Below, one piece after another: positions 1,980 through 17,389 of a DNA stretch of 64,000 bases. The stretch lies in sequence record NZ_CP013482.1; one strand, given 5' to 3'. Numbering within the stretch: position 1 is the stretch's first letter; each line of letters begins with the position of its first letter. The notes below the pieces were generated by a model, which saw only the letters and a list, made by a program, of their open reading frames with translations, was not told where the DNA came from and did not search any database. The position numbers were made by a program, and so were the translations under genes. This DNA comes from a plasmid.

Positions 1980-1985
1980 CTCGCT

Positions 1986-2584: not shown

Positions 2585-2821
2585 ATGCAAACCGTCAACA
2601 TCCACGACGCCAAATCGCAATTGTCGAAGCTCATCGAGCGCGCCAAGAGTGGCGAGGACGTTGTTATCGCCAAGGCGGGGGAGCCGGTCGCCCGTCTCGT
2701 CGCCTTCGTCCCGGCCAAGCCGGAACGCCGCTTCGGTGGCCTCAAGGGTAAGATCCGTATCGCTTCGGATTTCGACGACGCCTTGCCGGCCGATGTGCTT
2801 GCCGCGTTTGAGGGACAGTGA
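2585..2821 (+). CDS. phd: Type II antitoxin of the Phd/YefM family
   Basis: MQTVNIHDAKSQLSKLIERAKSGEDVVIAKAGEPVARLV, a classic Phd/YefM N-terminus; overlaps the downstream PIN gene by 4 bp. Confidence 0.8.
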   Translation: MQTVNIHDAKSQLSKLIERAKSGEDVVIAKAGEPVARLVAFVPAKPERRFGGLKGKIRIASDFDDALPADVLAAFEGQ

Positions 2822-3199
2822 TGCGCTTGCTTCTCGACACGCACGTTTTTCTGTGGGCTGTCACAGACGACCCGAAACTGAGCCTTGCTTCGCGTGAGGT
2901 TATTCAGTTGGCTGATGAGGTCTACGTAAGCGCCGCGAGCATTTGGGAGATTTCTATTAAGGCCGGTCTCGGCAAGATCGACGTCGATCCGACCGCCCTT
3001 ACGGCGGAGATACGCGCGGCTGGCTTTTTGGGAGTTGCCGATCACTACGGCGCATGCCGCCAAGGTATGCACACTGCCCGACATTCATCGTGACCCGTTC
3101 GACCGGCTGCTGGTCGCGCAAGCGATGTGTGAGCCGCTACAGCTATTCACAGCAGATGCCAATGTCTTGAAGTACACAGACTTGGCCTGGCGCGTGTAA
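2818..3199 (+). pseudogene. vapC: VapC (PIN-domain) toxin gene with a +1 frameshift in the GGG run at 3030-3032. Frame 1 ends at 3093; frame 2 continues ELPITTAHAAKVCTLPDIHRDPFDRLLVAQA to 3199
   Basis: N-terminal PIN motif LLLDTHVFLW; the locus length of 382 nt is not a multiple of 3; removing one G restores GFLELPIT..HRDPFDRLL. Confidence 0.6.
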
Positions 3200-3222
3200 T
3201 TCGATGAACATAGGAGCAACAA

Positions 3223-3468
3223 ATGGAATTTCTTGTGAATCCGCTCGTGTGGGGTATCTCAACAGTCGCAATGGCCGTCTCTGGTCTCACCATGTTTTAC
3301 GCCAGCATGGCGGGAATCCCGCTGAACCAACGGGTCTATTGGGTCGTGTTGTTGGCAAGCATGCTCGTTGCGGCCATCAACTCCGTGAGCAGCGTTTCAG
3401 GCATGGTGTGCAGCAGTTTCATACCTCCGTTCGGTTGCTCCGGCGGCGTCTTCTTTCCAAAATCCTAA
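3223..3468 (+). CDS. Small membrane protein (2 predicted TM), unknown function
   Basis: ORF with hydrophobic segments. Confidence 0.4.
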   Translation: MEFLVNPLVWGISTVAMAVSGLTMFYASMAGIPLNQRVYWVVLLASMLVAAINSVSSVSGMVCSSFIPPFGCSGGVFFPKS

Positions 3469-3480
3469 TCAGGGTCACTC

Positions 3481-3720
3481 ATGGCATTTCCGAAACGCAT
3501 CATCGCTCTGCTCGCCATCTCCGTGGTGTGCGTCATCGCTGTACTGATGGTAACGCGTCATGAGTCCAGCAGCGCTGTTGCAACGAGCGCTGCGAACATC
3601 GACGCTTGCGACAGGGACGCACAGCGCGCAGCGGGCTTGTCCGACGCCGCGCAACGCGAGCTGGCCGACAAGTGCTTCCGCTCAGGCTCTTTCACCAAGA
3701 GTGAGAAGCGAGAGTGGTAA
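3481..3720 (+). CDS. Small N-terminally anchored or secreted protein, unknown
   Basis: ORF, N-terminal hydrophobic helix. Confidence 0.4.
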   Translation: MAFPKRIIALLAISVVCVIAVLMVTRHESSSAVATSAANIDACDRDAQRAAGLSDAAQRELADKCFRSGSFTKSEKREW

Positions 3721-4046
3721 TGCCCATCATCACGAGCCGGCCACTCACGGCAAAGGAAGAGAAGACTCTTGCTGTACTCCAGGGCGCGCTTGTTGGATTT
3801 GTCGCGAACGGCTCGATTGCGCTGGTGTCGCCGGTTGACTTCGCTCAGATCATGCACAAACCGTCTGTGAACGAGATTCGGCAAGCCATCAATAGCCTGA
3901 TGAGCGTGACGTGGACGCCACACGACCGGCCCGGAAACCAGCGGCCGATAATCATGGCCTACGGTTCTCGAGACGGCGTGAATGCGTTCCTGGTGGAGTT
4001 CAACAGAGCCTACGTCGACGCCTTGAATAGCGAACCAATCCACTAG
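3714..4046 (+). CDS. Hypothetical protein (110 aa)
   Basis: ORF overlapping the upstream gene stop (translational coupling). Confidence 0.4.
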   Translation: MVMPIITSRPLTAKEEKTLAVLQGALVGFVANGSIALVSPVDFAQIMHKPSVNEIRQAINSLMSVTWTPHDRPGNQRPIIMAYGSRDGVNAFLVEFNRAYVDALNSEPIH

Positions 4047-4156
4047 CCGTACTAGCAAACTAGACGGGGCCGTAATGTACGTGACACCTCAGATTGTCAC
4101 CCTGAAAAACTGAATCTCCGCGCCGGCCGGCCGCCGACAACCAGCAATCACTAACT

Positions 4157-4789
4157 TTGAACCTTATGCCCGCGCAATTCCGTGTGATTCTCGACGCCTA
4201 TTCCCTTCAGAAATTTCACGTTGACCAAACCGAGTATCAAAAGCGGTTGGTTGCTGTTTTGCCGGACTTTGAGCTGTCGTTCAGCGTCGGAACAACAGGC
4301 GGCGACACGATCGCGATTCGTGATGGAATACAACTAGTCGAAGCGACAAACGCGGACAAGACTCAGCAGACCCAGTTTTTTCAAGCGGCCAAAAAGGTAT
4401 GGGCGGATCTCATGCGAGCGACGAAGACGTATCCGGTCAACGCCCGGGAACGCAACTTCCGCGTGACCGTCATTTCGACAATCAACGGGTACACCGCATC
4501 CGTTGTTGAGCGCATCGCTAGTCAGGAGCAGCCGGTTGCTCTCAACGTCCCGCTCCACGCGAGTATCAATCCGGGTTCGTTCTATCAGCACCGTCACTGG
4601 TTTCTGAAGATGCTCCTTGAGTTCGTAGATAGCGAGCTGATGGCGTGGGCTGTGACGAAATGCGACGGAGAAGCCGGCCCTGGCAAACATAACGCTCACA
4701 TTCTCGCAAATCTGCTCGGATGGCCTGAAGGGTATCCGGACGCCTGCGGTGACGATCTTTCGCGCCTTCAGGTGCCGCGATTGGACTGA
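4157..4789 (+). CDS. Hypothetical protein (210 aa)
   Basis: ORF only. Confidence 0.45.
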   Translation: MNLMPAQFRVILDAYSLQKFHVDQTEYQKRLVAVLPDFELSFSVGTTGGDTIAIRDGIQLVEATNADKTQQTQFFQAAKKVWADLMRATKTYPVNARERNFRVTVISTINGYTASVVERIASQEQPVALNVPLHASINPGSFYQHRHWFLKMLLEFVDSELMAWAVTKCDGEAGPGKHNAHILANLLGWPEGYPDACGDDLSRLQVPRLD

Positions 4790-5358
4790 AATACCTGATC
4801 GACTCGATTTTCGTCCGGCCGAGGTGTTTCGAGTGTGCTGGCAGTTGAGGCGAACAATCCCGATCGAGCGGCGTCGGGATTCGCAATGGTGCCGAAGGAT
4901 GCAGCCTTAACTGCGTTCTCGGCCAGCAGCAATACTTGCTCAACTGCGCCGATCAATTGAGCCGGGTTCGGCGTCACGAACCCATTTAGACCTTGCGGAT
5001 ACCGACCACGATACGGCCAGTCGTGGAGCGTATTCAGCAGCACACACCAATCCGGGGGCGACGTGGGAGCGACAAGCGCCAACTTGGCTGCTGCGCCCCA
5101 CAACGCACTGAGATCGTGCCCAAATGGCTTCTTGCTCAACTTCGAGGCAGGTATCTTCGCGGACCAGAGCAGCGCCTTCAACGCCCCCTCAAGTGCCTGG
5201 GCAGCGAGCAGCGCACCGGGTAGATGAGTTTCCACGGTGCTCGCCTCTAATGCCTTCGCCCCCTGCCAAAGCTGTTTGGCGGTCACCAAGAAACTCTCGC
5301 CGTCCGAGGGCCGCCGGAAGGCAACAGGCGGTGTGACCATCATTACGTGTCCATTCAT
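4768..5358 (-). CDS. Hypothetical protein, possibly a HEPN-like alpha-helical domain (KPFGHDLSALW)
   Basis: ORF; weak motif resemblance only. Confidence 0.4.
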   Translation of the reverse strand: MNGHVMMVTPPVAFRRPSDGESFLVTAKQLWQGAKALEASTVETHLPGALLAAQALEGALKALLWSAKIPASKLSKKPFGHDLSALWGAAAKLALVAPTSPPDWCVLLNTLHDWPYRGRYPQGLNGFVTPNPAQLIGAVEQVLLLAENAVKAASFGTIANPDAARSGLFASTASTLETPRPDENRVDQVFQSNRGT

Positions 5359-5382
5359 CTCGGGCAGCTCACTTTTTCCTTG

Positions 5383-5883
5383 TCACTTTACACAACGCAA
5401 CGCAGCAACCGGGGCAGGCGCGTCACCCGCTTTGTTGCGAAGATCCGGATAGCGCGCCTCAATCGTCGTTGCGTTTCCGGTTGGTGGGTTGTGTGCCGTT
5501 CCATTGATGCAAACTGCGGCACGACCGGTTTCATCGAAACCCATGTGGACCGCCGCGCTTTCGGGTACAGCGCCGATGCCGCTAACATAAACCGTCTGCT
5601 GTCCGGCGACCGTCTTCAATGTGGACCAAACTGTAGTTACCGTGTAGGCCACAGTCGATATTGCGAGCACCGCCGTCAACGCAATCATCACCGCTTGCTG
5701 ACGCCCTTGTGCCTTACCATCCTTCTCTGCTTGGCTAAGAATTTTGTCCAGGCGGTGTGAGAGTCCATTCATCGCCTCGTTCGTTCGATGCTGCATGATG
5801 CGCTGATACTTCTGCCCCTCCCCTGGCGCAACGAAATCAGCGTTCAGAATTGTGTCGAGATGAATGTCCTTCCAGTGGGTCAT
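5383..5883 (-). CDS. Membrane-anchored hypothetical protein (cytoplasmic N-terminus, one TM, Thr/Val-rich C-terminus)
   Basis: ORF and hydropathy. Confidence 0.45.
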   Translation of the reverse strand: MTHWKDIHLDTILNADFVAPGEGQKYQRIMQHRTNEAMNGLSHRLDKILSQAEKDGKAQGRQQAVMIALTAVLAISTVAYTVTTVWSTLKTVAGQQTVYVSGIGAVPESAAVHMGFDETGRAAVCINGTAHNPPTGNATTIEARYPDLRNKAGDAPAPVAALRCVK

Positions 5884-5898
5884 TATGTTTTCCAGTTG

Positions 5899-6231
5899 CT
5901 AAAGTGAACTGATGCGCGCCGGGTCTGTACCTACAGACCGGATGGCGAGCCATACTTGCAAGCGCTCTTCCGGTTCAGCCACTGGATGGGCGAGATCAAT
6001 CCCGAAGGGCTTCACAATAGCGAACACCCCGGGCGCAATGTTGTACAGTCGGTCGACTCGCCGCTCGGCTCCTATGACCTCGCGAATTCTCTGGAAAAGG
6101 CGCTGCCTCTCCCATCGGACTGGGGACCTAGCCCTAAACGGCAAACCCGATAGGTGCGCTAGGGCAGCGTCTATGTCTGATTCGGATACCACCATCGCCT
6201 GCGGTGATCTCCAGAGGGTTGCGAGACTCAT
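5899..6231 (-). CDS. Hypothetical protein (110 aa)
   Basis: ORF. Confidence 0.4.
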   Translation of the reverse strand: MSLATLWRSPQAMVVSESDIDAALAHLSGLPFRARSPVRWERQRLFQRIREVIGAERRVDRLYNIAPGVFAIVKPFGIDLAHPVAEPEERLQVWLAIRSVGTDPARISSL

Positions 6232-6252
6232 ATCGCCTTTTCCGCGGTTTTC

Positions 6253-6594
6253 CTAAAGCGCTGACGGTCGCAGATAGACCTTGTCACTGCTTCGATACTT
6301 CCGAAGGAATTCGGCCAAGAATGACCTCACCGCATCGTAGTCGTCGAGAAATGCCATGACCTCTGGATCGCTCTCATCGTCTTCAGGAAGGTCATGATTA
6401 ACGAAGTACTGCAAGGCCATCTGCCACTTGACGTCCTCCTCCTCCGTGATTTGGTAGTTCGCTTCCAACCACTTGTACTCGTCTGACGTGCCGTCTAATC
6501 CCGGTTCTCCCCAGACGCGCTCCATCTCGCCGATGACGGAATAGAACATCGAAGTTTCAATTCCGTCGTCGTCTTCATCTACGGGCGTGGTCAT
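6253..6594 (-). CDS. Highly acidic small protein (113 aa, D/E-rich)
   Basis: ORF; composition. Confidence 0.45.
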   Translation of the reverse strand: MTTPVDEDDDGIETSMFYSVIGEMERVWGEPGLDGTSDEYKWLEANYQITEEEDVKWQMALQYFVNHDLPEDDESDPEVMAFLDDYDAVRSFLAEFLRKYRSSDKVYLRPSAL

Positions 6595-6602
6595 GATTCT
6601 TC

Positions 6603-6878
6603 CTATTTGACGTCAGCTTTGCGATCGCGAAACTGCTTTGCGATTTCCCGCGCGCGCTCCGCGCCTTTCTTCGACGCCTCCGCGAGTTTCCCGTTTTCTG
6701 CCGACATGCGTCCTGCCGTCGCTCCGCCTCGCATTTTTGCTTCGAGGGGTTGTAGTGCCCCGATTTCGGCTGCTCCGCCGACAGTCATCCATGCCAACTG
6801 GTGCTCCTTATTGACGAAGACTCTCTGTCCCTTCACAGGCTCACCGCATCCACATTTGCAGTTCCGCATCACGGCCAC
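6603..6878 (-). CDS. Small protein with an N-terminal Cys cluster (CKCGCGEP) and a C-terminal KGG-type stress-protein-like repeat
   Basis: ORF; motifs. Confidence 0.45.
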   Translation of the reverse strand: MAVMRNCKCGCGEPVKGQRVFVNKEHQLAWMTVGGAAEIGALQPLEAKMRGGATAGRMSAENGKLAEASKKGAERAREIAKQFRDRKADVK

Positions 6879-6884
6879 TCCCGT

Positions 6885-7106
6885 CTAGTTGTTCGGATGT
6901 CCAACATAGCAACCAGCAAGCACGAACAGTGCCGTGAACTCATGCTGACAAGACTCGCACACGTACTCCTGGTGAACCGTCTTGGTGCCGATCGCGCAAG
7001 CACCCATCGTCACCTCTGTTGATTCGCAGGATGGGCACAGCGTCGTGCTGGACGCGATGACTCGGTCCTTCCATTCGTCAGTTCCAAGCATCCTGCTCTC
7101 CTGCAA
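6885..7106 (-). CDS. Four-Cys zinc-ribbon protein (CPSC..CESC), 73 aa
   Basis: ORF; CxxC..CxxC. Confidence 0.45.
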   Translation of the reverse strand: MQESRMLGTDEWKDRVIASSTTLCPSCESTEVTMGACAIGTKTVHQEYVCESCQHEFTALFVLAGCYVGHPNN

Positions 7107-7215
7107 ATTTCATGGCAATCTTTCCGTTGTCAGCGGAGCCAGCCCTAATGCCGCATGGCTTCCTCGGGATCTGGATGTCCTTGTAGGTCGCCATAGCGGG
7201 CTTGTGCTTTCTGGC

Positions 7216-7713
7216 CTAAGTCACGATGAACGTGGTAGCGTTGGCAACCCGGCTTCTGAGCATCTTGTTCCACAGCTCGCGCCGACGGTGCTCATGGATT
7301 TCGCCCCAAGGCACCAGCTCGATCCCGGCCATTTCGTAGTCCCCGCGAGCGCGCATCGCGGCGTAGTTCTCCGCGCTCGTAACGATGTGGACGGACTCGC
7401 ACTCAATCACAGTTCGCACGAACTCGTCAGGGTCCTGTCGCTGCTCCCGTCGATGTCGATCAACAAGCGCCGTGAGTGTCGTCTGAATTCTCTTGTGGTG
7501 CTCTAGTCGCAGGTCGCCGCTTTGACTCGCGATTGCCTCCATTGAAACTAGCCCAGAAAACTGCCTCACTCGACGTTTTACACTCTCGGCCATCACGTGC
7601 GTGTACCACGCTCTCGCTCGACTGGCCGTCACATTAGGGCGGCCTGACAGCCACATTACCTCTTCGTAAATCGAAGTGAGGGCGCGAAGATCGTCTAAGT
7701 GTCGGTCGTTCAT
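7216..7713 (-). CDS. Hypothetical protein (165 aa)
   Basis: ORF. Confidence 0.4.
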   Translation of the reverse strand: MNDRHLDDLRALTSIYEEVMWLSGRPNVTASRARAWYTHVMAESVKRRVRQFSGLVSMEAIASQSGDLRLEHHKRIQTTLTALVDRHRREQRQDPDEFVRTVIECESVHIVTSAENYAAMRARGDYEMAGIELVPWGEIHEHRRRELWNKMLRSRVANATTFIVT

Positions 7714-7722
7714 TTTCCGTGG

Positions 7723-8289
7723 TTATCGCCGCATGCGGTCGTTCGGATTGGGATACCGTTGCAACACCTCCAACCCCGTTAGCGCGCATGGGTCGATTGT
7801 GTACTCTTCCTCGCCAAGCCATCTACTGTGTTTCCCAGGGCCGGAAATAATTGCCATTGCGTCAACATTCGCACTGAGTAGAACGCCACCGCCGGAGTAG
7901 TAAGCGTTCAGACCACTTCCGAACATTTCTGCGGTACGACGCTGCGACGACCAACAGAGGCCAATCCTCCCGGCATTGAAGCGCTCGGTGCTCTCGCCAC
8001 GATACAGCGTCAACGACGGGCCTTCGTAGCGTGGTAACACGGCCAGCAGCAGCCGAACCAAGAGCTTGTCGTCGCCGATTTCTTCGCGAATGCGACCTCC
8101 GTACGTCACCCAACTGGTGAGGCAATTCTCGCGGTGCTGCCCGTTGGAGGAGCATTCGTCGGCGACTCGCTGAAGGGCGTCTACCCAGCTCAGGCCATTC
8201 GCCTTAGCCTCCTCTCGACTGGGCATATGGTGACCGCCAGAGAGAAACGATGACGTCAAAGAAGCAATGCACATTTGCGAGTAAACCAA
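7723..8289 (-). CDS. Hypothetical protein (188 aa); weak R-S-E ADP-ribosyltransferase-like pattern (LYRGES..LLSANV..GEEEYTIDP)
   Basis: ORF; motif resemblance only. Confidence 0.4.
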   Translation of the reverse strand: MVYSQMCIASLTSSFLSGGHHMPSREEAKANGLSWVDALQRVADECSSNGQHRENCLTSWVTYGGRIREEIGDDKLLVRLLLAVLPRYEGPSLTLYRGESTERFNAGRIGLCWSSQRRTAEMFGSGLNAYYSGGGVLLSANVDAMAIISGPGKHSRWLGEEEYTIDPCALTGLEVLQRYPNPNDRMRR

Positions 8290-8297
8290 CCTTTTTC

Positions 8298-8555
8298 CTA
8301 GTGGCTCACGGCCGGATAGACGAAATCTTCGTCGGGCGTAAATTCGTACCGGGCAGGATCGCTCTCGAACATCACGTAGCCCTCGACACCCTTCTCGCGG
8401 AGCACCTTCACTGCGCGTCGGGCGTTCGCGACCTCAAATTCGTGAAGCCTGCCCGTGTCGGCAGGGCGACCGCCGCTCGACGCTCCCTCGCCACTGATCA
8501 GGAGCGTCATTTCTGCGCCCGAACCGGCCTTGCGTCCAAAAATCTGGCTTTTCAT
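8298..8555 (-). CDS. Hypothetical small protein (85 aa)
   Basis: ORF. Confidence 0.35.
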   Translation of the reverse strand: MKSQIFGRKAGSGAEMTLLISGEGASSGGRPADTGRLHEFEVANARRAVKVLREKGVEGYVMFESDPARYEFTPDEDFVYPAVSH

Positions 8556-8673
8556 CGAGTTTTCCTACACGCCCAACGATCGGCAATCCGCGCACTGCTT
8601 TTGCAGATGCCAGCAGGCTCAAACGAACCTGGGTGGCGAGCCGGGAACAAACGCTCTCGGCCAAAAAGGTGTT

Positions 8674-8991
8674 TCAGATGTTGTTCTCGCAGAAGCCTGC
8701 GAGCGGCACGGGAGACGCGAGTGTTGAAATGATCGTGTACCCCGGATAAGTCTGCTTTGCGGTTCGTGAGAACGTCGCAACCGCTTCATCCTCGTCCGTG
8801 GCCGCGATAATCCCGTGAACAGGCTTAATTACGTCCGTCGAGCCGTCCTTGCGCATGACTGCGGAGACCATGAATCGAGTCGGTTGGTTGACATGCCAGC
8901 CTGCGCGGCCGCCCGGCGCTGCGGATGCATAGCCCTGCGACGAAAGGATGGCTGCGAGCAGGATGATCCTCAGCATGGCCGCCTGTCTCAC
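8674..8991 (-). CDS. Small secreted/periplasmic protein (Sec signal peptide)
   Basis: N-terminal signal-like MRQAAMLRIILLAAILSSQGYASAAP; overlaps the upstream gene by 4 bp. Confidence 0.45.
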   Translation of the reverse strand: MRQAAMLRIILLAAILSSQGYASAAPGGRAGWHVNQPTRFMVSAVMRKDGSTDVIKPVHGIIAATDEDEAVATFSRTAKQTYPGYTIISTLASPVPLAGFCENNI

Positions 8992-9284
8992 AGTTCCGGA
9001 TTGGCAAGGAATGCCGCCGTTTCGAGCGTGCTTGCGGCATGCTCCCGGCCCGAAAGTGCAACAGCCACGTGAAACAGGGCGACGGCACGGTTGTTGCTGT
9101 CGAGCATCCCCGATGCCGCCCGGATGAGTGCAATACCCTTCACCACCGCTTTCGCTTGCTCCGACGATCCGGAGCTACCGAGACGCTCCACCATCGATTC
9201 CATCGATTCGATTTCCGAGCCAAATTCCATATCACCCTCGCCGTAAGAGCGGCACATGAGCCGCGCAATGTTCAATGAATACAT
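8988..9284 (-). CDS. Hypothetical protein (98 aa)
   Basis: ORF. Confidence 0.4.
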   Translation of the reverse strand: MYSLNIARLMCRSYGEGDMEFGSEIESMESMVERLGSSGSSEQAKAVVKGIALIRAASGMLDSNNRAVALFHVAVALSGREHAASTLETAAFLANPEL

Positions 9285-9290
9285 TGTAGA

Positions 9291-9322
9291 TAATTATTGT
9301 GTTGCGCGCAACCCAATAATTA
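9291..9322. promoter_or_regulatory. 32-bp nested imperfect palindrome (taattattgtgttgcgcgcaacccaataatta) filling the gap between the acyltransferase stop and the next gene
   Basis: Seen in sequence; potential intra-operon hairpin. Confidence 0.35.
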
Positions 9323-11287
9323 AGGACGGCCGGTAATGATGGCCTCTAACTCCCCCGGTCGGCTCCGTCGGTACAGTTGATAGTAGTGGGCTCCGCCCTC
9401 AAGATTCAGGTGAGTGGTGTCGTTGCTTCTGTAAAGCGGGATGTTTCCGGCGGCCGTGGCACACATCCCATTACTACATGCGGCACCATACGTGTGCATC
9501 ACTTTCACCGCCGGCAGGCGGGCCGCCAAATTCCCTACAACCTCATGATTCGCCGCCTCAACGCCGGCCGCCGACTGGCGGCTGAATTCGCACGATCGAG
9601 CGAACGGTGACCACCTCAATCCGTTGTACAACGGACAGTTGATGAGCCCGTCAGGCATGGGGGGAACATCATCAAGGATGACGACTTGCTTGCCGGCGTC
9701 GAGCAGCGCCTTCGCCGTGCGGTAGAGATCCTCGTCAATCTGCTCTGGGCCAAACCCTCGCTCGTTACGCTTCACGTTTGACGGCGCTACGTACGCCCCC
9801 CATGTACCCGATAGGAAAACAACTTCAATGTCGCTGCTTTTCAGCAGATAGTTCATGACCAGTCGATCATGTTCGCGGCATGGTTCATCCATATTCGGCC
9901 GCGTGCCGATCGGAGGATCCGCGACCGGAGGGCAGAGCGGCCGCGCCATGTCGTGAACACTTAACCCGAACTCGTTGCCCAACTCCCGGAAGAAGTACAC
10001 GAAGTGATAGGCGTGAGAGTCGCCCCACAGGACGGCCTTTCTTCCGCCTGGCGCCCCGACAGAACATTTCGCTTCCGACGTAACCCCTACAGCCCCCCAG
10101 CACAGTGCCCCTCGTCCCTGCATCCAGTCACGGTCGGTCGACGCGGTATAGATTTCTCGAAATTGCTGGGGATACATGAACAGAAAGTTTGTGGACGTTC
10201 TTCCCACCGCCACAGTAGAAGCAGCAAGTGCGATCGGTGCCAGGATGTAACCGATCACGGCTCTCCTAAAGCTCACTCGCGCATAGCGCAACGGCTGCTC
10301 GACATACCGATGGGAAAGCGCAGCAACAACGAAACTCAACGCTACCGCGCAGACGATCGCGACGTCGCTCGTCAGCCCGAACCGCCGAAACGCAAAAAGT
10401 ATCGGCCAGTGCCAGAGATAGATGCCATACGACCGGAGGCCGATCCAGAGCGCAACGCGATTTCCAAGCACTGCACGGATCACTTTCGAGTCGTGTCCCG
10501 AAAGAATCAGCAGAGCAGCGGGCACCGTCGGGGCGAGCGCCCAAACTCCAGGGAACGGCTTTCCGCCAATAAAAGTGGCGCATGCCAGCACGCCAATAAG
10601 CGAGAGAACGGCTAAGAGTCCACGAGCGGTTCGCGCGCTATTCCACTGGCCTAGAAACGCAACTACAACGCCCAAGATGAACTCGAACGCACGATACTGG
10701 CTGAAGTAGTAAGCCCCTGGCGCTCCCGCGCGGACTGCCATCTCTGACCAAGCCAGAGACGCAAGCCCGAGTGCAATGAACGAAGCAATTTTGACGCGTG
10801 CTCGCGCATGACGAAGCCCAAACAACACCAGCGGAAACACCAGATAGAATTGCTCTTCGACCGAGAGAGACCATGTGTGAAGTAGCGGCTGTTGCTCCGC
10901 CGTCGGTGCGAAGTAGCCCGTCATCTTCGCCAGGTAGACATTCGATGCGAAGCCCGCGACGTAGGCCATGTTCTTGGCAACCTCCATCGCGTCGTCCGGG
11001 ATGAGAAACACCACGCTGAAAGCGAAGGTGACTGCCATCATCACGAACAATGCCGGAACTAACCGTTTCGCACGGCGCACGTAGAAGTCGCGGAAGCGGA
11101 AGTTCCCCGCCGCTTGAGCACTACAGATGCTCCGGGTGACGACGAATCCAGAGATTACGAAAAAGATATCGACCCCAACGAAGCCACCGGCGAGTTGGCT
11201 AACCCCAGCATGGCAGGCTACGACGAGAAGCACGGCGAGCGCGCGGAGGCCGTCCACGTCGGGACGATAGTTTTTATTGCTGGTCAT
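9320..11287 (-). CDS. Acyltransferase family 3 membrane protein with a C-terminal SGNH-like domain (OafA/YrhL-type O-acetyltransferase)
   Basis: N-terminal RPDVDGLRALAVLLVVACH motif; about 10 TM; 655 aa, the typical size. Confidence 0.8.
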   Translation of the reverse strand: MTSNKNYRPDVDGLRALAVLLVVACHAGVSQLAGGFVGVDIFFVISGFVVTRSICSAQAAGNFRFRDFYVRRAKRLVPALFVMMAVTFAFSVVFLIPDDAMEVAKNMAYVAGFASNVYLAKMTGYFAPTAEQQPLLHTWSLSVEEQFYLVFPLVLFGLRHARARVKIASFIALGLASLAWSEMAVRAGAPGAYYFSQYRAFEFILGVVVAFLGQWNSARTARGLLAVLSLIGVLACATFIGGKPFPGVWALAPTVPAALLILSGHDSKVIRAVLGNRVALWIGLRSYGIYLWHWPILFAFRRFGLTSDVAIVCAVALSFVVAALSHRYVEQPLRYARVSFRRAVIGYILAPIALAASTVAVGRTSTNFLFMYPQQFREIYTASTDRDWMQGRGALCWGAVGVTSEAKCSVGAPGGRKAVLWGDSHAYHFVYFFRELGNEFGLSVHDMARPLCPPVADPPIGTRPNMDEPCREHDRLVMNYLLKSSDIEVVFLSGTWGAYVAPSNVKRNERGFGPEQIDEDLYRTAKALLDAGKQVVILDDVPPMPDGLINCPLYNGLRWSPFARSCEFSRQSAAGVEAANHEVVGNLAARLPAVKVMHTYGAACSNGMCATAAGNIPLYRSNDTTHLNLEGGAHYYQLYRRSRPGELEAIITGRP

Positions 11288-11394
11288 TCACGTGCTTCGC
11301 TCACCGATGGAGAGCGACCCCGAAATATTTTTGAAGAAGTGCGGTTAGAGAAATGCGAGCGGGCGGCGGGCGTTTCTATCACCCTCACGGCGGG

Positions 11395-12102
11395 TCAGAT
11401 CCGCGTCGCAAGCCAAACCACAGGATCAGAACCGGAAATCAACAGAAACAGCCCCGCACCCGACAGAAACGGGCCAAAAGGCAACACGTCTTCCGCGCGA
11501 CTACCCCATCTAATCACCGCGAGGAATAAGCCCGTCGCGGCCGCAATCAGGAGCATTGACGGAACTGAGGCGACGCCCATCCACGCGCCTATACCGGCGG
11601 CCAGTTTAAAGTCGCCCTGCCCCATGCCGTCCTCGCCTTTGCGGATCCGCCGGAATGCATTTACCGCCCAGAGCGCAGCAAAAGCCGCTGTCGCGCCGGC
11701 GACCGACTCGGCTACAGACGTGCGCCACCCCATCCAATTCGCAAAAATTCCGACGCCAATCAACGGGAGGGTGATGACGTCGGGAAGCATGAGTGTTTGG
11801 TAGTCGACGAGGGCAAGCAGGGTCAGCAACCATGCCAGAGTTGCCCCCACGACGACGATGCCCGCACTCTGACTTCTAGCCGTCAGAGCCGCACATATCG
11901 CGGCAAACGCTAAGGTGACGGCCGCTTTTGTACTTGCTTGGTACGCAACCCCCTCATCGCACTCGTTCTCGCATGCGAGAACCATTGCCGCTCGCGACGC
12001 CGCAGGGAAAAGGAGCGCCCCTGCGCAAAGCCCCGCAGCGCCACTCAGCACCAGGCTCAACAGGTTCATGACTGCGCTGTCCTGCTCCGTCCGTGCCACC
12101 AC
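11395..12102 (-). CDS. A24-family prepilin peptidase-like membrane protein
   Basis: Motifs LVDYQTLMLPD and GQGDFKLAAGIGAWMG (the two catalytic Asp motifs of PilD/TadV-like peptidases). Confidence 0.6.
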   Translation of the reverse strand: MVARTEQDSAVMNLLSLVLSGAAGLCAGALLFPAASRAAMVLACENECDEGVAYQASTKAAVTLAFAAICAALTARSQSAGIVVVGATLAWLLTLLALVDYQTLMLPDVITLPLIGVGIFANWMGWRTSVAESVAGATAAFAALWAVNAFRRIRKGEDGMGQGDFKLAAGIGAWMGVASVPSMLLIAAATGLFLAVIRWGSRAEDVLPFGPFLSGAGLFLLISGSDPVVWLATRI

Positions 12103-12455
12103 TCAGCGGCGCCGAGAATCGCAACGTATCCAAGAACCGTTTGCGGGATGAGAATCCATGCGGCGGCGACTTGCCTGAGCAACATGTCCACGGCCCGGTT
12201 GTAAGGCAGCCCGAGGGTTCGATTGCCGAAAACGTAGGTGAAATAAATCAGAAACAATGCGGCCACGACGAAAAGCACGCCTTTAACCCGCAAACCGCGA
12301 TAGCCCAGGAATGCCCCAATAAAATAAATCGGTAGCGAGAGGCACCAGTCGGTCAACGAGGACGTGTAACCCATCACGACATAGGCGAGATGCCCAAAGG
12401 CCGCACCAAGGACCGTCAGGGCAAACGCCTGACGGGGCAAGCTTGAGGTGTTCAT
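12066..12455 (-). CDS. Integral membrane protein (4 TM), unknown
   Basis: ORF; hydropathy. Confidence 0.45.
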   Translation of the reverse strand: MNTSSLPRQAFALTVLGAAFGHLAYVVMGYTSSLTDWCLSLPIYFIGAFLGYRGLRVKGVLFVVAALFLIYFTYVFGNRTLGLPYNRAVDMLLRQVAAAWILIPQTVLGYVAILGAAEWWHGRSRTAQS

Positions 12456-12742
12456 CGTGACTTCTTCCGCCGGCGTTCCGCCTGGTCGATAAGAGCTTTC
12501 TCGATTGCCGCTCGCTCTGAGCGGTCATCTTCCGCCAGATAAATCAACGCTTGGTTGGCCTCCGCGCAGAGGCGTACTCGACTGAGTTCACGTCCGCCTT
12601 CGGCTTCGAGTTGCTCCTTTAGCCGACGCGTACGGACAGTGGAAATTTCCCGCGGTCGCGGGGTGTCCACTCTCGGCCGTCCGCGGCCTCGCGGCTTTTC
12701 CACGGCCTGCTGTGTTGAAGTTTCGGCTTTGCTCTTCATCAT
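12452..12742 (-). CDS. Small basic DNA-binding-like protein with an AT-hook (RGRGRPR)
   Basis: ORF; overlapping start and stop with neighbours. Confidence 0.45.
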   Translation of the reverse strand: MMKSKAETSTQQAVEKPRGRGRPRVDTPRPREISTVRTRRLKEQLEAEGGRELSRVRLCAEANQALIYLAEDDRSERAAIEKALIDQAERRRKKSR

Positions 12743-12957
12743 CGACCTTCAATTTCCTTGCGCTTCAACGCGCGAAACCGGATCCATACCACCGTCACGA
12801 ACAAGGCGATCGCAAGTGACGGCAATGCGGGGGGAAGAACCTCGTTCACGTCTGCGCCAGCCCAAACGCCGAAGCCAAGCAGAACAACCGGCATGCTCCA
12901 CGCAATGAATGTCCAGCGCCCCCAAAATCGGCCGAACCTCAGAATAACGCTATTCAT
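12739..12957 (-). CDS. Small membrane protein (72 aa)
   Basis: ORF; 2 TM. Confidence 0.4.
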   Translation of the reverse strand: MNSVILRFGRFWGRWTFIAWSMPVVLLGFGVWAGADVNEVLPPALPSLAIALFVTVVWIRFRALKRKEIEGR

Positions 12958-13352
12958 TTCCCCACCTTCTCCCTGCCGTTTTGCGGGCCATCGCTGCGTA
13001 GCTTGTCCGCCACCGCGTTACGCGCCGTCTCGTAGTCGAGATTCTCGTCAGGTGACTTCGTCACGTACGTCCCCCTGTCATCCATAATTGCCATGAAGAT
13101 GTTATGCGACGCACTCTGCCGGATCTTCCCGTCTGTCATGGCATCTGCGATGACCTGACGGGCGGCGCGGCTATCAGGCCAGTTGTTTGCGATGTTTGTG
13201 TACTGCCAGGCAGGGATTTCTTTCGCGGATTCCCACGCCCCAAGGGCACCGCCAGCCACTGCGCACAGGACCGGAACCACGATGTACGGTGCAATAAAAC
13301 GCGTCGTTTTTGATAGTTTCATCTCGATTTTTCTGTTGCATTGAGCGATCAC
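12954..13352 (-). CDS. Exported or lipoprotein-like protein (132 aa)
   Basis: ORF; N-terminal hydrophobic segment with a possible lipobox VLC. Confidence 0.45.
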   Translation of the reverse strand: MIAQCNRKIEMKLSKTTRFIAPYIVVPVLCAVAGGALGAWESAKEIPAWQYTNIANNWPDSRAARQVIADAMTDGKIRQSASHNIFMAIMDDRGTYVTKSPDENLDYETARNAVADKLRSDGPQNGREKVGK

Positions 13353-13448
13353 TTCACGGCAGGAGGGCTTTAACCGTCGTCCGTGATATTTCGTTACTTG
13401 CCTGGAGCCAACGGATCGTTATCAAAGACGAGCGTTTTTCCGAGTAGT

Positions 13449-13610
13449 TAGCGCCCACGGTTCGCCAGAACATCCAGCAAATGTTGCCCCATGATGTCCG
13501 TCATCCAGGGGGCGAATATTAAATAAACGAACGTGGCGAATCCGAGCACAAATACTGCCGCTGCGAATCGCTTCGCAACAAACCAACGTCTCGTCGTGAC
13601 TTGTTCCATG
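13449..13610 (-). CDS. 53-aa membrane peptide (below the ORF-track cutoff)
   Basis: Manual translation: MEQVTTRRWFVAKRFAAAVFVLGFATFVYLIFAPW.. Confidence 0.3.
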
Positions 13611-13624
13611 TGATATTTCCGTAG

Positions 13625-13953
13625 TTACGCCGACTTGTCGCAGGTGATGGTCTTGGCGAGCCAGCCATGTCGATTCGCGAGCGCACGCTTCACGAGTTCA
13701 ACCGTGCACGCTCCCCCGCTGAAAGTCGTCTTGACGTGAGCAACCTCGCCCACAACTTCCGGCTCCTCGTTCACATGAACCGGATCGATTTTGTACGCCT
13801 TCCCGACTGCCTCGGCGGCAGCAAATCGTGCTGCAAGCAACGATCCCGGTTGAGCGTGTTCGCCGCAAGCACTAAGCAGCGCAGAGGCGGCCAAGTAGAC
13901 GGTCCATTTCGTGACGGAGCCCATCCATTCGCGTCCGAGTTTTGGTGTGGTCA
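13625..13953 (-). CDS. Lipoprotein (internal start MTTPKLG.. of the 188-aa ORF; lipobox LSAC)
   Basis: Signal peptide with lipobox; the upstream part of the ORF overlaps the neighbouring gene. Confidence 0.4.
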
Positions 13954-13965
13954 TGTAATCTCCGA

Positions 13966-14154
13966 TTAGTGGTTGTTGCACGCCACACGCTTCTTCAGAA
14001 ACGCCCAGAGGCCCCCCGCAAAGAGAAGGCAAATCACACCCAAAACAGCGAACCACCAATTGCTCTCGCCTTCCATTGCGCTCGCTAGCCTGTCTCCCGC
14101 ACGAACGAGGGTTGAAACCCCTCCCAGCAACATTGCTACGGCGGAATATTTCAT
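13966..14154 (-). CDS. Small membrane protein (62 aa)
   Basis: ORF; 2 TM. Confidence 0.4.
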   Translation of the reverse strand: MKYSAVAMLLGGVSTLVRAGDRLASAMEGESNWWFAVLGVICLLFAGGLWAFLKKRVACNNH

Positions 14155-14424
14155 TTACTCGGCAAGGTCGTAGTCGGCACTGGTCGGCCAATTAACGCCA
14201 TCGAGGGCGCGAAGGGACTCTTGAATGCGGGCCTGCGCCTGGAGCAACTTGTCGCGCAACTCGTAAGGGTTGTGGTGAACTCCATAGCCGTTCTTTCTCA
14301 CCGAACCTGACAAGGCGTTGTACGCAGCTTGCCAAGCCTTCTCGGCGGCGTCACAACCCTTCTCAGCCGCATTCAGCTTTGCCTTCGCTTGTTGCTTCGT
14401 AGTCATGTTCTGTCCTTTCGTCAA
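14155..14424 (-). CDS. Hypothetical protein (89 aa)
   Basis: ORF abutting the downstream gene. Confidence 0.45.
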   Translation of the reverse strand: MTKGQNMTTKQQAKAKLNAAEKGCDAAEKAWQAAYNALSGSVRKNGYGVHHNPYELRDKLLQAQARIQESLRALDGVNWPTSADYDLAE

Positions 14425-14448
14425 TTCCGTCCGCGCCGACTTGGAAGG

Positions 14449-14931
14449 TCATTCATCGGCGGTCATCAGTGGAACCACCGCCGTGACGAACCCCATCATG
14501 CACGCGCCCAAGAGGCCAACAGGGAAAGTCACTGCGGTCATAGCCGCAAGCTTTGCCTGAATGTTGTCTCGACCGAGCGAATCCAGCATCGCCCATACCG
14601 CGCAATTCGCCGGCAACGCGACAACAAGAACAAGCAGCATGCACGAAATCGCGAAGCGAGATTGCCACACACCAGTCAGCTTTGTGGCGACACAACCACT
14701 CCACACAGCTCCGAGAGAGGATGCCCAAACCATGAGAATCGCTGGCCACGCCGTTGAGTAACCTCCGGTCAAAAGTTCGTGCCATCCGTACCACACCCAC
14801 CCGAATACACTCCCTCCCTTGAGGGCCAATGCAACCAACAGGATGGCACCCGCGACGCCCAATGCAATGCTACGTCCGCAATCGACCATCGCTGCCCGTA
14901 CAGTCTGAACATGGTTCACCATCTTCTGCAC
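14449..14931 (-). CDS. Integral membrane protein (about 4-5 TM)
   Basis: ORF; hydropathy. Confidence 0.45.
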   Translation of the reverse strand: MQKMVNHVQTVRAAMVDCGRSIALGVAGAILLVALALKGGSVFGWVWYGWHELLTGGYSTAWPAILMVWASSLGAVWSGCVATKLTGVWQSRFAISCMLLVLVVALPANCAVWAMLDSLGRDNIQAKLAAMTAVTFPVGLLGACMMGFVTAVVPLMTADE

Positions 14932-15175
14932 CTCTCACTCATCTCAAGCCCAGCTAACCGCCGTACTGACGAGCCCGATGGCAAACGCCACGAGCGCGAT
15001 GACAATGGCACCTAACGCAAAACCTCTCATGACTATTCTCTATTGGTGAAATGGGTTATTCGGCCGACAGGAGACCTAGCTTTATGAGGCGTGCTCGAAT
15101 TGCCCCTCTGGTTCGACCGAACTGACTTCCAAGGGCGGTCAACCGGCCATTGCTATACGGGAGCGCAGCATTTTC

Positions 15176-15589
15176 CTACCGATCGTACTTCGCGAGAAGA
15201 CGCTTAGCGTCCTCTTCGTCTCCGGGAATCGGCTGACCCGAGCCGAGCCGATCTTCAAGTGCGCGAGCGAGTGACCAGTCCGTTCCGCGATCGCCCTTGT
15301 CTTCCAGTTCGTGGTGCAGATACGCCAGTCGATTCGCAAGGCGAGTCGTACGGGCGAATTCAATTTCTTTCGCGAAATGCACACCGTCGGAGTGAGCAAT
15401 GGAACCGCCTTCGGTCAACGCTACGGTGTTCGCCTCAGCCCCTTCGCTCGAGTCCGATACGATCAGGGCCAGCGCGTCCCCCTGGGGGAGGCTACTCACA
15501 GAGATGTCCGTGTGCAGGCCAAGGGCTTTCAATTTCTGTGCTGCTTCACGGAGGATCCCCGTGGCGGCTTCGTTGTCGAAAATGCTCAT
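15176..15589 (-). CDS. Hypothetical protein (137 aa)
   Basis: ORF. Confidence 0.45.
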   Translation of the reverse strand: MSIFDNEAATGILREAAQKLKALGLHTDISVSSLPQGDALALIVSDSSEGAEANTVALTEGGSIAHSDGVHFAKEIEFARTTRLANRLAYLHHELEDKGDRGTDWSLARALEDRLGSGQPIPGDEEDAKRLLAKYDR

Positions 15590-15636
15590 GTTTTGTCTTA
15601 TCCTTTGTGCCGGTCAGTCCGGCGATTTTTTCCTGT

Positions 15637-16116
15637 TTAGCGTGCAGACGGATGCGCCGCGATGTCGGCAGACACTTCGGTCCACTCAACGACGTACCCT
15701 GGAATCTTCCCAGCTTCGTCTCGGCTCTCAGGCTTGTAGACGTGCGTACCGTCCCTCAGCCTCTCCGCGTACATGCAGGCAGCAGCTCGCGTGCGAAGAG
15801 ATCCGATCGACTGCCAATGCCCGCCCATCGCCAGTGGCCGGAACTCGTAGAATTGCGTCCTGCCTATCTCGCGCATCGGTACTTGGCAATGCCAAGCTCC
15901 GTCGAACCACTCCATTCTGACGATGTCGCTCTCCCACAGGCCGGGGACAGCTTTGCCGTCCGAGCCCTTAGAGCGCTTCAACGCGCGCATGGATTCTGGT
16001 TGGATACGCATGAATTCCCCGATTCGTTTAGCTGGCGAAAAAGAACTCGCGAGCGCAGAGAGTGTCCAGCGACTCATCGAGTACCGCACTTGCCGCTTCG
16101 TGCGAGTGTCGGCCAT
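15637..16116 (-). CDS. Hypothetical protein (159 aa or shorter internal start)
   Basis: ORF. Confidence 0.4.
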   Translation of the reverse strand: MADTRTKRQVRYSMSRWTLSALASSFSPAKRIGEFMRIQPESMRALKRSKGSDGKAVPGLWESDIVRMEWFDGAWHCQVPMREIGRTQFYEFRPLAMGGHWQSIGSLRTRAAACMYAERLRDGTHVYKPESRDEAGKIPGYVVEWTEVSADIAAHPSAR

Positions 16117-16258
16117 TGGGCCAAACGGTGTCAGGACCGGCGAGAATGCCCTTGGCCCATTCGGCTTGCACGATTGCGTTTTGCAGTGCTTCTTCGTCGG
16201 GATACCACTTGCCGTCGAAACCGAGTGCTTTCACTTCACCGAAGTATCGCGTTTGCAT
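16028..16258 (-). CDS. Hypothetical small protein (internal start MQTRY.. of the 128-aa ORF)
   Basis: ORF; the upstream part overlaps the HTH gene. Confidence 0.3.
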   Translation of the reverse strand: MQTRYFGEVKALGFDGKWYPDEEALQNAIVQAEWAKGILAGPDTVWPNGRHSHEAASAVLDESLDTLCAREFFFAS

Positions 16259-16315
16259 TGCCGCTCTCCTTCTCCGTTGAGACGACGCTGGGATTACTGC
16301 GCTATGTCGCTCATA

Positions 16316-16338
16316 ATATACCCCCATTGGGGGTATAT
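16316..16338. promoter_or_regulatory. Palindrome ATATACCCCC-att-GGGGGTATAT (10-bp arms) at the 3' end of the HTH gene
   Basis: Seen in sequence. Confidence 0.4.
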
Positions 16339-16565
16339 CAAGGTGTTTTTGTGCTCCAAAGCAAAATCTCTCGGATGTATGCCCAAACCACATCTGGCAT
16401 CGCCCGGAAGTCACTGGTATTGGCAGGGGCGAGCCACTTGTCGAGGGTCTTGTCAGGCACGCTGATGCGCTTCGCGAACGCGGCGCGCGTCATGCCGAGT
16501 TCGCTCATCGCTTCCCGCAGAAACTCTTGCTGAGCTTGTGTGGTGGCTTTTTTCACTCCCATCAA
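16338..16565 (-). CDS. Small HTH (XRE-like) transcriptional regulator
   Basis: ELGMTRAAFAKRISVPDKTLDKWL helix-turn-helix. Confidence 0.55.
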   Translation of the reverse strand: MMGVKKATTQAQQEFLREAMSELGMTRAAFAKRISVPDKTLDKWLAPANTSDFRAMPDVVWAYIREILLWSTKTP

Positions 16566-17233
16566 ATCACTCCACTTACGATCGAAGCCATACGCACAGG
16601 ATCGCTTTCGACCATTTTTTTAACGGCACTCAAACTCGAAACTCCAATCAGTTCCTGAATCAGCTTTAGGCTCCGCCCTTCCCTATGAAGGCGAACCGCA
16701 AAGGTGCGGCGCGCTGCGCTTGCGTTGCCATTAGCGATGCCCGCCTGGTGGTGCAAACGGCGGTAGATCTCAGTCAGCGACTCACACGAATAGCTGACCA
16801 CGCCATTTGGACTCACGCGCTTGGTGAAGGTAAAGGGCGCCCCGTCGCTGGCCAAAAAGAGTGGGCTCTGCGGATCGAGCCCACGATACGCTGCACGTAG
16901 AATCGTTACGCCTTGACGTGTCTCCTTTCGGTGAGCGAGATAGGCGTCAATGACCTCGCGGACTTTCGGACTGGAGAAGAACAGCGGCCTTGCTTTCCCA
17001 TTGAAAGCGATCTCAGCCCGAACGGTTGAATGCACCCTGACTTCACCATTCTCGAGAAGGTAGTCCTCTACGGTCAGCTTGGCTGTTTCGTTGGGTGCGA
17101 GCCCGGTCCCGTACGCGATGAGCAGCAACGCGACGTCGCGCTCCTTGGCATGGCCAGTGACAGCGGCGACCTTTCGCGCGTGCCGAATCTGATGTTCTTC
17201 AATAACGGCGGCTTTTGCCATCCTGTAATGCAC
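16562..17233 (-). CDS. Tyrosine-recombinase (phage integrase) catalytic-domain-like protein. Canonical R/H-x-x-R/Y residues appear substituted (TGLAPNE, AARRTFAV, IGVSS, no terminal Tyr), so it may be inactive
   Basis: Box-like motifs read by eye; alignment uncertain. Confidence 0.5.
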   Translation of the reverse strand: MHYRMAKAAVIEEHQIRHARKVAAVTGHAKERDVALLLIAYGTGLAPNETAKLTVEDYLLENGEVRVHSTVRAEIAFNGKARPLFFSSPKVREVIDAYLAHRKETRQGVTILRAAYRGLDPQSPLFLASDGAPFTFTKRVSPNGVVSYSCESLTEIYRRLHHQAGIANGNASAARRTFAVRLHREGRSLKLIQELIGVSSLSAVKKMVESDPVRMASIVSGVI

Positions 17234-17332
17234 TCCGGATGAGTTGTATTACGAGGAAGTATGTGAGGCGCGATCGTAAAACGCAAGCTGAGGACGCGCC
17301 ATTTCTACCGTCCTCGGAAAATCGCGCCGGCA

Positions 17333-17372
17333 CAAAAAAGGGGCCGAACGCTGTCGGCCCCTTGTTAATGCT
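17333..17372 (-). terminator. Rho-independent terminator after traC (GGGGCCGACAGCGTTCGGCCCC + TTTTTTGT on the minus strand)
   Basis: GC hairpin followed by a T-run. Confidence 0.6.
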
Positions 17373-17389
17373 GCGAGGTTGATCAGGCG

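Follow-up and report, generated by a model that had tools for sequence, protein, structure and literature searches.

The plasmid record NZ_CP013482.1, analysed here as a stretch of 64,000 nucleotides (the window), carries next to its traC gene a block of 27 co-directional genes on the minus strand, between positions 4768 and 17221 according to the gene calls and to our list of open reading frames (ORFs); the genes are named g01 to g27, starting at the traC end (Table 1). An initial annotation of the same DNA had proposed that the block is one novel accessory system. Our analysis points to another explanation, which we consider probable: the block is mosaic cargo located in the expected slot of an IncP-1-like plasmid and not one co-adapted system. 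It would consist of at least five or six modules with separate inheritance (g01-g02, g03-g11, g12-g16, g17-g18, g19-g25 and g26-g27), drawn from a pool of small genes circulating on Burkholderiales plasmids as long same-strand arrays. The g01 and g02 products would act as DNA-binding regulators heading the array, g12-g16 would form an envelope module, and the remaining genes would encode small proteins that are individually selected or decaying. Several promoters, situated in the larger gaps, probably drive transcription, and g11-g15 would be translationally coupled.

The 27 genes do not travel together, contrary to what had been proposed. When 25 of them were searched as a polyprotein (tblastn) against the 72,556 plasmids of PLSDB, no record held more than four, and a second tblastn search with the 14 least-matched proteins gave only single scattered hits. 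With megablast, the only match of the block in PLSDB was a 359-bp stretch of g25, and no related plasmid was found. A single system should keep its gene order from one independent replicon to the next, and this was not observed: of the three best relatives, one has g01-g02 in common with the block, one g12-g16 and one g19-g25, and nothing more. Other genes have relatives in scattered positions, such as g09 (58-60% identity, in Burkholderia and Caballeronia plasmids) and g18 (46-67%, on Paraburkholderia, Ralstonia and Cupriavidus plasmids). A match of the block to a known prophage or integrative and conjugative element, which by the initial annotation's own account would speak against its proposal, was seen only loosely: separate pieces do match other Pandoraea or related contigs or plasmids, but none of these is a named element of either kind. 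Since the parts of the block have different relatives, different levels of divergence and different neighbours, and since a gene relic is found among them, we conclude that they have different histories and that some of the DNA is decaying.

The segment g19-g25 was exchanged recently, and the flanks of its nearly identical copy in Pandoraea soli are unrelated to those of the window. Its breakpoints, which unlike those of the other modules were mapped at base level, are in the spacers just ahead of the start codons of g19 and g26. Pandoraea oxalativorans pPO70-2 likewise has the g25 part, at 99.7% identity and split there by IS256. The heptamer GGAAAAC, read on the minus strand, bounds the 2.68-kb segment on both sides (5887-5893 and 8559-8565); the 64 kb contain only four minus-strand copies of it, and across the window as a whole it is about as frequent as expected by chance. 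The heptamer could be the microhomology used in the exchange, or merely the ribosome-binding sites of g19 and g26. The gene relic in the 253-nt gap between g05 and g06 is the scar of a deletion: it is in frame, directly past the g05 stop codon, and its intact counterpart is present in a Pandoraea cepalis contig (L013, 6043-6396). A premature stop in g05 was also considered and rejected, because the Pandoraea commovens homologue is equally long and the conserved segment downstream is the relic of a different gene.

To place the block among similar loci, we compared it with same-strand arrays on Burkholderiales plasmids, namely Burkholderia vietnamiensis pMSMB608 and pBVIE03, Paraburkholderia sprentiae pl3WSM5005, an unnamed Ralstonia solanacearum plasmid and P. 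oxalativorans pPO70-2. Like the block, these arrays have homologues of g02 and/or g01 at their head and consist of long one-strand runs of genes for hypothetical proteins of 60-200 amino acids (aa), and single genes are shared with it (g02, g03, g05, g15, g19, g20, g25 and g26). They differ from it in that content varies in each, with at most four genes in common with the block. No described function for such arrays was found in the searches made. As a whole the block is ordinary: cargo in this slot is normal for IncP-1 plasmids, and Burkholderiales plasmids commonly carry arrays of small hypothetical genes; tight packing on one strand does not by itself make a system.

The setting of the block is that of an IncP-1 plasmid. 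Positions 1-2854 recur at 61146-64000, which shows a circular replicon, about 61.1 kb in length (~61,146 bp), that wraps round within the window; the terminal copies differ by one extra G near 83-88, probably an assembly or overlap artefact. Gene calls were taken from the identical public contig CEWL01000006.1 (GCA_001049515.1, 61,272 bp) together with our own ORF list, and the same replicon sequence is also present in several sequencing runs. The host assigned to the plasmid is Pandoraea apista, where the g16 acyltransferase is annotated with 100% identity. Pfam families assigned to the called genes of the whole replicon revealed a complete IncP-1-type backbone at 17390-53391, containing trfA, ssb, trbA-trbP, klcB, kleE, korA, incC, korB and kfrB and, in its tra part, traM-traL-traK, oriT and then traJ-traI-traG-traF-traE-traD-traC. 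Both the gene set and the gene order match IncP-1. Even in traG, the backbone is only about 75% identical in nucleotide sequence to known IncP-1 plasmids, and no close relative of it was found in PLSDB. With about 75% as the best traG identity, the clade must be absent from that database, and the plasmid apparently belongs to an unsampled, divergent IncP-1-like clade.

IncP-1 plasmids usually carry cargo in a recombinational hot spot between tra and trb (PMC4914505). The block is found in this very place, between traC and the trb operon/par region. Its first gene begins 168 nt past traC, and from there it extends toward the resolvase, H-NS and trbP side, filling the space between traC and the resolvase, H-NS, toxin-antitoxin, TonB-receptor and adhesin genes that lead to trbP. 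It is the traC-proximal half of the accessory load of the plasmid. The difference from known IncP-1 accessory regions is in the nature of the cargo. These typically hold transposon-borne resistance or catabolic genes, whereas here there is no transposase, and the slot is occupied by a same-strand array of small genes and, further along, by an adhesin, a TonB receptor controlled by a B12 riboswitch, an H-NS protein and a PhD/PIN pair.

The initial description of a unidirectional, operon-like run of about 27 small minus-strand genes behind the traC terminator agrees with the gene calls, the GC pattern, the overlaps and a strong terminator with a 10-bp stem. All 27 genes show the codon-position GC pattern of the backbone genes (GC1>GC2<GC3), so they are not pseudo-ORFs, while the long plus-strand ORFs inside the block lack it and are antisense artefacts rich in R, L, S and P. 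Of the 4-bp overlaps proposed earlier, those at 12954-12957, 12739-12742 and 12452-12455 are present and, with another at 12066-12069, link g11 to g15 (all ATGA); g01 and g02 overlap by 1 nt with an ATG start and by 4 nt only with a TTG start, and the start of g18 is more likely at 8976 than at 8991. The regulator with a helix-turn-helix (HTH) and the recombinase-like protein said to head the block are both there but in the reverse order, the recombinase-like gene coming first, and g01 starts with the ATG at 17221, not at 17233; its homologues all begin with MAK. Motifs similar to Shine-Dalgarno sequences precede many start codons. Promoter and terminator scans inside the block remained at or below chance level, Rfam and tRNA scans gave no match inside it, no attC-like or other interspersed repeat family was found in 4500-17500, and no unusually long hairpins were detected in the block.

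The content of the block had been described accurately as a mixture of membrane, lipoprotein or exported, zinc-ribbon, AT-hook and acidic proteins. We found several proteins with transmembrane (TM) segments, one lipobox, one signal peptide, zinc ribbons, a basic protein with the motif GRGRPR and an acidic protein with an isoelectric point of 4.1; about nine proteins are TM, exported or lipid-anchored, and the small acidic ones are g03, g05, g17 and g24. Pfam thresholds are passed by three proteins only (Phage_integrase, Peptidase_A24 and Acyl_transf_3+SGNH), and 19 of the 27 have no significant profile hit; most have homologues in other genera at the protein level, with 40-93% identity. No ATPase, helicase or nuclease domain was found among the block proteins with Pfam and none of 31 proteins matched PADLOC-DB at E<=0.01. 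A PHROGs scan gave matches limited to acetylase, integrase and weak regulator hits, and a phmmer search of the 25-gene polyprotein against PDB sequences gave nothing credible.

The idea of surface remodelling, which had been put forward for the whole block, fits only the sub-module g12-g16. The P. cepalis contig keeps the order g12, g13, g14 (as a remnant), g15, g16, with protein identities of 59-83% (50% for the g14 remnant); a short contig of a different sample (L012) has g13-g15-g16 in synteny. Reduced to a remnant in the one and absent in the other, g14 is therefore dispensable to the module. The products of g15 and g16 are, by their sequences, intact enzymes.

With PilD/PilU-type A24 peptidases g15 shares the Peptidase_A24 domain and both catalytic Asp motifs (LVD89 and GQGD153FK). 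Unlike them, it lacks the N-terminal DiS-P-DiS/methyltransferase domain, which most of its relatives have, and prepilin, pilus ATPase and secretin are not encoded on the plasmid. The closest relatives of g15 are 57-59% identical. The 59%-identical one, in P. cepalis, is located ~4-10 kb from an R64-type type IVb thin-pilus cluster with PilS, PilV/shufflon, PilM, TcpQ and ATPases, and no other A24 gene is present in the 22-kb locus read; a look-up of this P. cepalis peptidase returned no record. In our replicon, Pfam revealed no PilS, Flp, T2SSE/F or secretin families apart from the P-type trb genes, and no pilin gene for g15 was found in the window, in keeping with the earlier remark that this peptidase has no recognisable prepilin substrate. 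On the basis of one genomic context, g15 appears to have been inherited from a thin-pilus plasmid, with no cognate pilin on the present one. Two more specific assignments were tried and rejected: g15 as R64 PilU-like, the plasmid hits being generic A24 peptidases of pO157 and Pseudomonas megaplasmids, and g12 as a cryptic prepilin, its N-terminus not being prepilin-like, its +5 residue not being Glu and its Gly13 not being conserved.

The fused architecture of g16 (PF01757 at residues 10-324 and PF19040 at 406-634) is the same as in Salmonella OafA/OafB and in phage O-antigen acetylases, and a match to the PHROG O-antigen acetylase at 1.6e-139, obtained for one protein in the scan of 31 from the block, is attributed to g16. 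The residues essential in OafA are R14/H25, G34/F35/D39, R69/R72 and S412/D587/H590 (PMC7448272). Their equivalents in g16 are all present (R15, H26, G34-G35-F36, D40, R72, R75, S424, D623 and H626), so that, like OafA, it has the R-X10-H, GG-F-xGV-D and RXXR motifs and the GDS...DxxH triad, and, by sequence, its identification as an OafA-type acyltransferase was correct. It is only 27-38% identical to the phage acetylases, and it differs from the known enzymes in being plasmid-borne and linked to an A24 peptidase. The enzyme would O-acetylate a surface sugar, most likely (as predicted) the O-antigen of the lipopolysaccharide (LPS), altering phage or pilus receptors. On a plasmid of the cystic-fibrosis pathogen P. 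apista, an OafA-type acetyltransferase could thus change LPS serotype, phage sensitivity or pilus-receptor recognition. On Pandoraea-type plasmid contigs we also observed R64-like type IVb thin-pilus clusters (PilS, shufflon-type PilV, PilM, TcpQ) near OafA-type acetyltransferase genes, at L013 12922-21968 and at positions 1-6305 of a further contig, L014, where the cluster adjoins a NikA/NikB-like relaxase and an anti-restriction gene.

The sequence of g01 matches the catalytic-domain fold of XerC/XerD-type tyrosine recombinases (46.9 bits against PF00589, with a cut-off of 27.1). Unlike these it has no N-terminal core-binding domain, and it has lost Arg-I, His-II, His-III and Tyr, as have nearly all of the family members aligned with it. 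When g01 was aligned to XerD and XerC-like structures, Arg-I was found to be Ala, His-II a gap, His-III Val and Tyr Met, and Arg-II is the sole active-site residue kept. Such losses run through most aligned members of the ~220-aa family: the loss of the tyrosine was examined in 19 of them, and the nucleophile and Arg-I are missing in g01 and in all but one of 16 aligned stand-alone homologues of ~220 aa, while one divergent member keeps all active-site residues. The family search gave 622 cluster representatives at E<=0.001, a number that probably includes ordinary active recombinases. We therefore regard g01, on sequence grounds, as most likely a DNA-binding protein and not a recombinase. A literature search on inactive plasmid tyrosine recombinases returned nothing relevant. 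This widespread tyrosine-less recombinase-fold family heading variable arrays could repay work.

Homologues of g02 are annotated as "transcriptional regulator" and head small-gene arrays in Burkholderia, Pandoraea and Pseudomonas plasmids; with or without g01, they head same-strand arrays in Burkholderia, Pandoraea, Ralstonia and Pseudomonas plasmids. A contig search with g01 alone, a single-protein query that reaches close relatives only, gave a single locus. The closest relative of the g01-g02 pair, in Pandoraea sp. NPDC087047, has 85% identity, and unrelated genes then follow on the same strand. It is conceivable, but in our opinion quite unlikely, that the pair defines an undescribed class of plasmid locus heading hypervariable arrays, and that it works as a switch dedicated to a shared and rapidly shuffled set of effectors acting in host interaction or anti-defence. 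The arrays concerned span Burkholderiales and some Pseudomonas plasmids, and the effector pool behind the switch would include g20 and the g12-g16 envelope module.

Concerning g20, R92 and E155 are invariant in its family, W108-[S/T] is present as well, and the order of the last motif is E-x-[E/Q]. The mono-ADP-ribosyltransferases of the R-S-E type and Tpt1/KptA usually have [Q/E]-x-E; in g20 the motif is reversed, with the first Glu invariant. It also differs from them in that profile and PDB searches gave no sequence-level match to any ADP-ribosyltransferase (ART) family, and in that no partner immunity gene is consistently next to it. The product of g20 would be an ART-like protein, and this small putative ART-fold family, confined to Pandoraea, Paraburkholderia, Robbsia and Pseudomonas, could repay work.

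The direction of conjugative transfer bears on when the block would reach a recipient. On the plus strand, oriT has a perfect 15-nt inverted repeat at 28980-29013 followed by CACCTATCCTG/CCC (region 28980-29025; a slash marks the nick), that is, an IncP-type inverted repeat and ATCCTG/C. The Rfam traJ-II RNA motif at 28928-29027 overlaps the inverted repeat and the nick region. The sequence is very close to what we take to be the RP4 nick region (ACCTATCCTG/CCC), and the position of nic was assigned by this similarity. As a general rule, the repeat sits 5' of nic on the transferred strand. By the orientation of repeat and nic, transfer would lead into traK-L-M, with the block on the relaxase side; with nic so placed, the block would enter the recipient late, roughly 37-49 kb into the 61-kb transfer. 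The relaxase side of oriT has been described as the lagging region by Samuel et al. (PMC11541004).

Late entry is relevant for the most serious rival explanation, an anti-defence or establishment island of small, individually acting inhibitors expressed early after transfer, which the initial annotation had offered as an alternative. Same-strand arrays headed by g02-like or g01-like genes do adjoin hallmark leading-region genes elsewhere, as in Burkholderia ubonensis pMSMB2035 (near DUF932, an orphan C5 methyltransferase, LPD29 and DUF3560) and in P. sprentiae pl3 (near a giant helicase, PLD and DUF1173), and in L014 the g16 homologue and an Antirestrict-family gene are ~7.5 kb apart, with oriT between them. 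The acidic small proteins and the ART-like g20 also fit such an island, as does the adjoining ArdC-domain primase TraC (its ArdC domain is outside the block), and the transferred plus strand is the template for the block genes. However, traK-L-M would enter first and the block would follow on the lagging side; inside the block there is no ssb, psiB, ardA, klcA or methyltransferase, no significant Pfam or NCBIfam match to anti-restriction or anti-SOS proteins and no known PADLOC family, and long hairpins were not detected. So weakened, this explanation seems to us unlikely, with a limited chance of being right. We give far less credit to the whole block being one novel system for envelope remodelling, exclusion or receptor masking, with membrane proteins, lipoproteins, A24 peptidase and O-acetyltransferase acting together. 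The tight co-directional packing with its 4-bp overlaps, the number of TM, exported or lipid-anchored proteins, the two intact enzymes and the occurrence of g12-g16 in two other replicons would all be in its favour, but that co-occurrence ends at g12-g16, and even there g14 can be lost; g06, g08-g11, g18 and g26 are missing from the relatives or occur singly on other plasmids, g19-g25 came in recently and are found in P. soli with other neighbours, and the peptidase has no pilin, secretin or ATPase in the window.

Two further explanations are in our view extremely improbable. An integron-like cassette array, with g01 inserting and shuffling promoterless cassettes, would agree with a recombinase-family gene heading arrays whose content differs between replicons, and with breakpoints of g19-g25 just before start codons and GGAAAAC at both ends; yet g01 and nearly all aligned stand-alone homologues have neither Arg-I nor the nucleophilic tyrosine, no attC-like repeats or interspersed repeats of another type were found between the genes, g01 is co-directional with the array, and GGAAAAC resembles a Shine-Dalgarno sequence and is at chance frequency overall. 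Chance ORFs in GC-rich DNA might be suspected from the 19 proteins with no profile hit and the seven with no PLSDB homologue, but the backbone GC pattern is present in all 27 and missing in antisense ORFs, most have homologues in other genera, and the genes are tightly packed with Shine-Dalgarno-like motifs before many starts. It should be noted that some observations also weigh against a mosaic. Tight spacing, a single orientation and no strong internal terminators are equally expected of a single operon, and the block genes may be co-expressed and interact functionally. Seven genes (g06, g08, g10, g11, g12, g14 and g27) have no PLSDB homologue, and the evidence for separate histories does not reach g06, g08, g10, g11 and g27. 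No transposase or inverted repeats mark the arrival of the cargo. The link between g15 and a thin pilus comes from one context, and in L014 the acyltransferase occurs together with a pilus cluster while an A24 gene is missing.

Table 1. Features of the 27-gene block and its boundary, from the traC side (window coordinates; aa, amino acids; TM, transmembrane)
Feature	Position	Strand	Description	Evidence
Terminator	17338-17363	-	Intrinsic terminator after traC, upstream block boundary	10-pair stem, 7 GC pairs, T tail
g01	16562-17221	-	219 aa, tyrosine-recombinase catalytic-domain fold without active site	Pfam Phage_integrase 3.4e-12
g02	16338-16562	-	74 aa, HTH-type transcriptional regulator	N-terminal 60 aa of NCBIfam PRK11891, 6e-15
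g03	16028-16258	-	76 aa, acidic	89-93% identical homologues in Paraburkholderia plasmids, other contexts
g04	15637-16011	-	124 aa (146 aa with alternative start)	Gene calls; no Pfam, NCBIfam or PDB match
g05	15176-15589	-	137 aa, acidic	62% identical same-length homologue, Pandoraea commovens plasmid
Gene relic	15062-15175	-	38 codons without start codon, in g05-g06 gap	61% identical to C-terminus of intact 117-aa gene
g06	14449-14922	-	157 aa, 4 predicted TM segments	Hydropathy; no PLSDB match
g07	14155-14406	-	83 aa	Isolated homologues in Vogesella and Agrobacterium plasmids
g08	13966-14154	-	62 aa, one TM segment	Gene call, hydropathy
g09	13625-13954	-	109 aa, predicted lipoprotein	Lipobox LSAC at residues 27-30
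g10	13448-13609	-	53 aa, one TM segment	Gene call, hydropathy
g11	12954-13322	-	122 aa, N-terminal signal-anchor, opens coupled run g11-g15	4-bp overlap with g12; no PLSDB homologue
g12	12739-12957	-	72 aa, 2-TM, first gene of module g12-g16	Homologue 59-63%, directly upstream of g13 homologue, P. cepalis
g13	12452-12742	-	96 aa, basic, GRGRPR AT-hook-like motif	75-77% homologues upstream of A24 peptidase, L012 and L013
g14	12066-12455	-	129 aa, 3-TM	C-terminal remnant in L013, absent in L012
g15	11395-12069	-	224 aa, A24 aspartic prepilin peptidase	Pfam Peptidase_A24 3.8e-19, 69.5 bits
g16	9320-11287	-	655 aa, AT3-SGNH (OafA/OafB-type) carbohydrate O-acetyltransferase	Acyl_transf_3 1e-34 and SGNH 1e-32
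Palindrome	9291-9322	.	AT-rich, 16+16 nt (TAATTATTGTGTTGCG/CGCAACCCAATAATTA), between g16 end and g17 start	Arms 94% complementary, no spacer
g17	8988-9284	-	98 aa (or 80 aa), acidic	Gene calls; one weak homologue, Undibacterium plasmid
g18	8674-8976	-	100 aa, exported (predicted signal peptide)	N-terminal MLRIILLAAILSSQGYASA
Exchanged segment g19-g25	5886-8565	-	Recently exchanged segment	99.1% identical over 2,680 bp to Pandoraea soli L009 9725-12404
g19	8298-8555	-		In exchanged segment
g20	7723-8274	-	183 aa, helical N-terminal domain and putative C-terminal ADP-ribosyltransferase-like fold	
g21	7216-7713	-		In exchanged segment
g22	6885-7091	-		In exchanged segment
g23	6603-6869	-		In exchanged segment
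g24	6253-6594	-		In exchanged segment
g25	5899-6231	-		In exchanged segment
g26	5383-5883	-	166 aa, one TM segment	54% homologue on B. vietnamiensis G4 pBVIE03
g27	4768-5358	-	196 aa, last gene, converges on plus-strand gene 4166-4789	Weak HEPN-like similarity

The palindrome between g16 and g17 is possibly an operator or a transcript end. For g27, the Pfam HEPN match (E=0.0048) is under the gathering cut-off and the single-sequence AlphaFold2 (AF2) model is unusable (predicted local distance difference test, pLDDT, 41), which leaves the HEPN similarity unconfirmed. Four small plus-strand genes (3223-4789) converge on g27, and just beyond the block there are a PhD/PIN toxin-antitoxin pair (2586-3199), an H-NS-family protein (1987-2310) and a serine resolvase (1270-1980). 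In the rest of the accessory load, a cobalamin riboswitch (Rfam, 84 bits; 60181-60401) is directly upstream of a gene for a 617-aa TonB-dependent receptor (60496-62349); this BtuB-like gene for B12 uptake is part of the plasmid's cargo. Directly after trbP, the gene for an intimin/invasin-like adhesin of 1,553-1,577 aa (IAT_beta, Big_1 and Invasin_D3 domains; 53425-58158) contains about eight tandem repeats of 297 nt. In the central control region of the backbone, a 319-aa protein combines Fic and KfrB domains (31990-32949).

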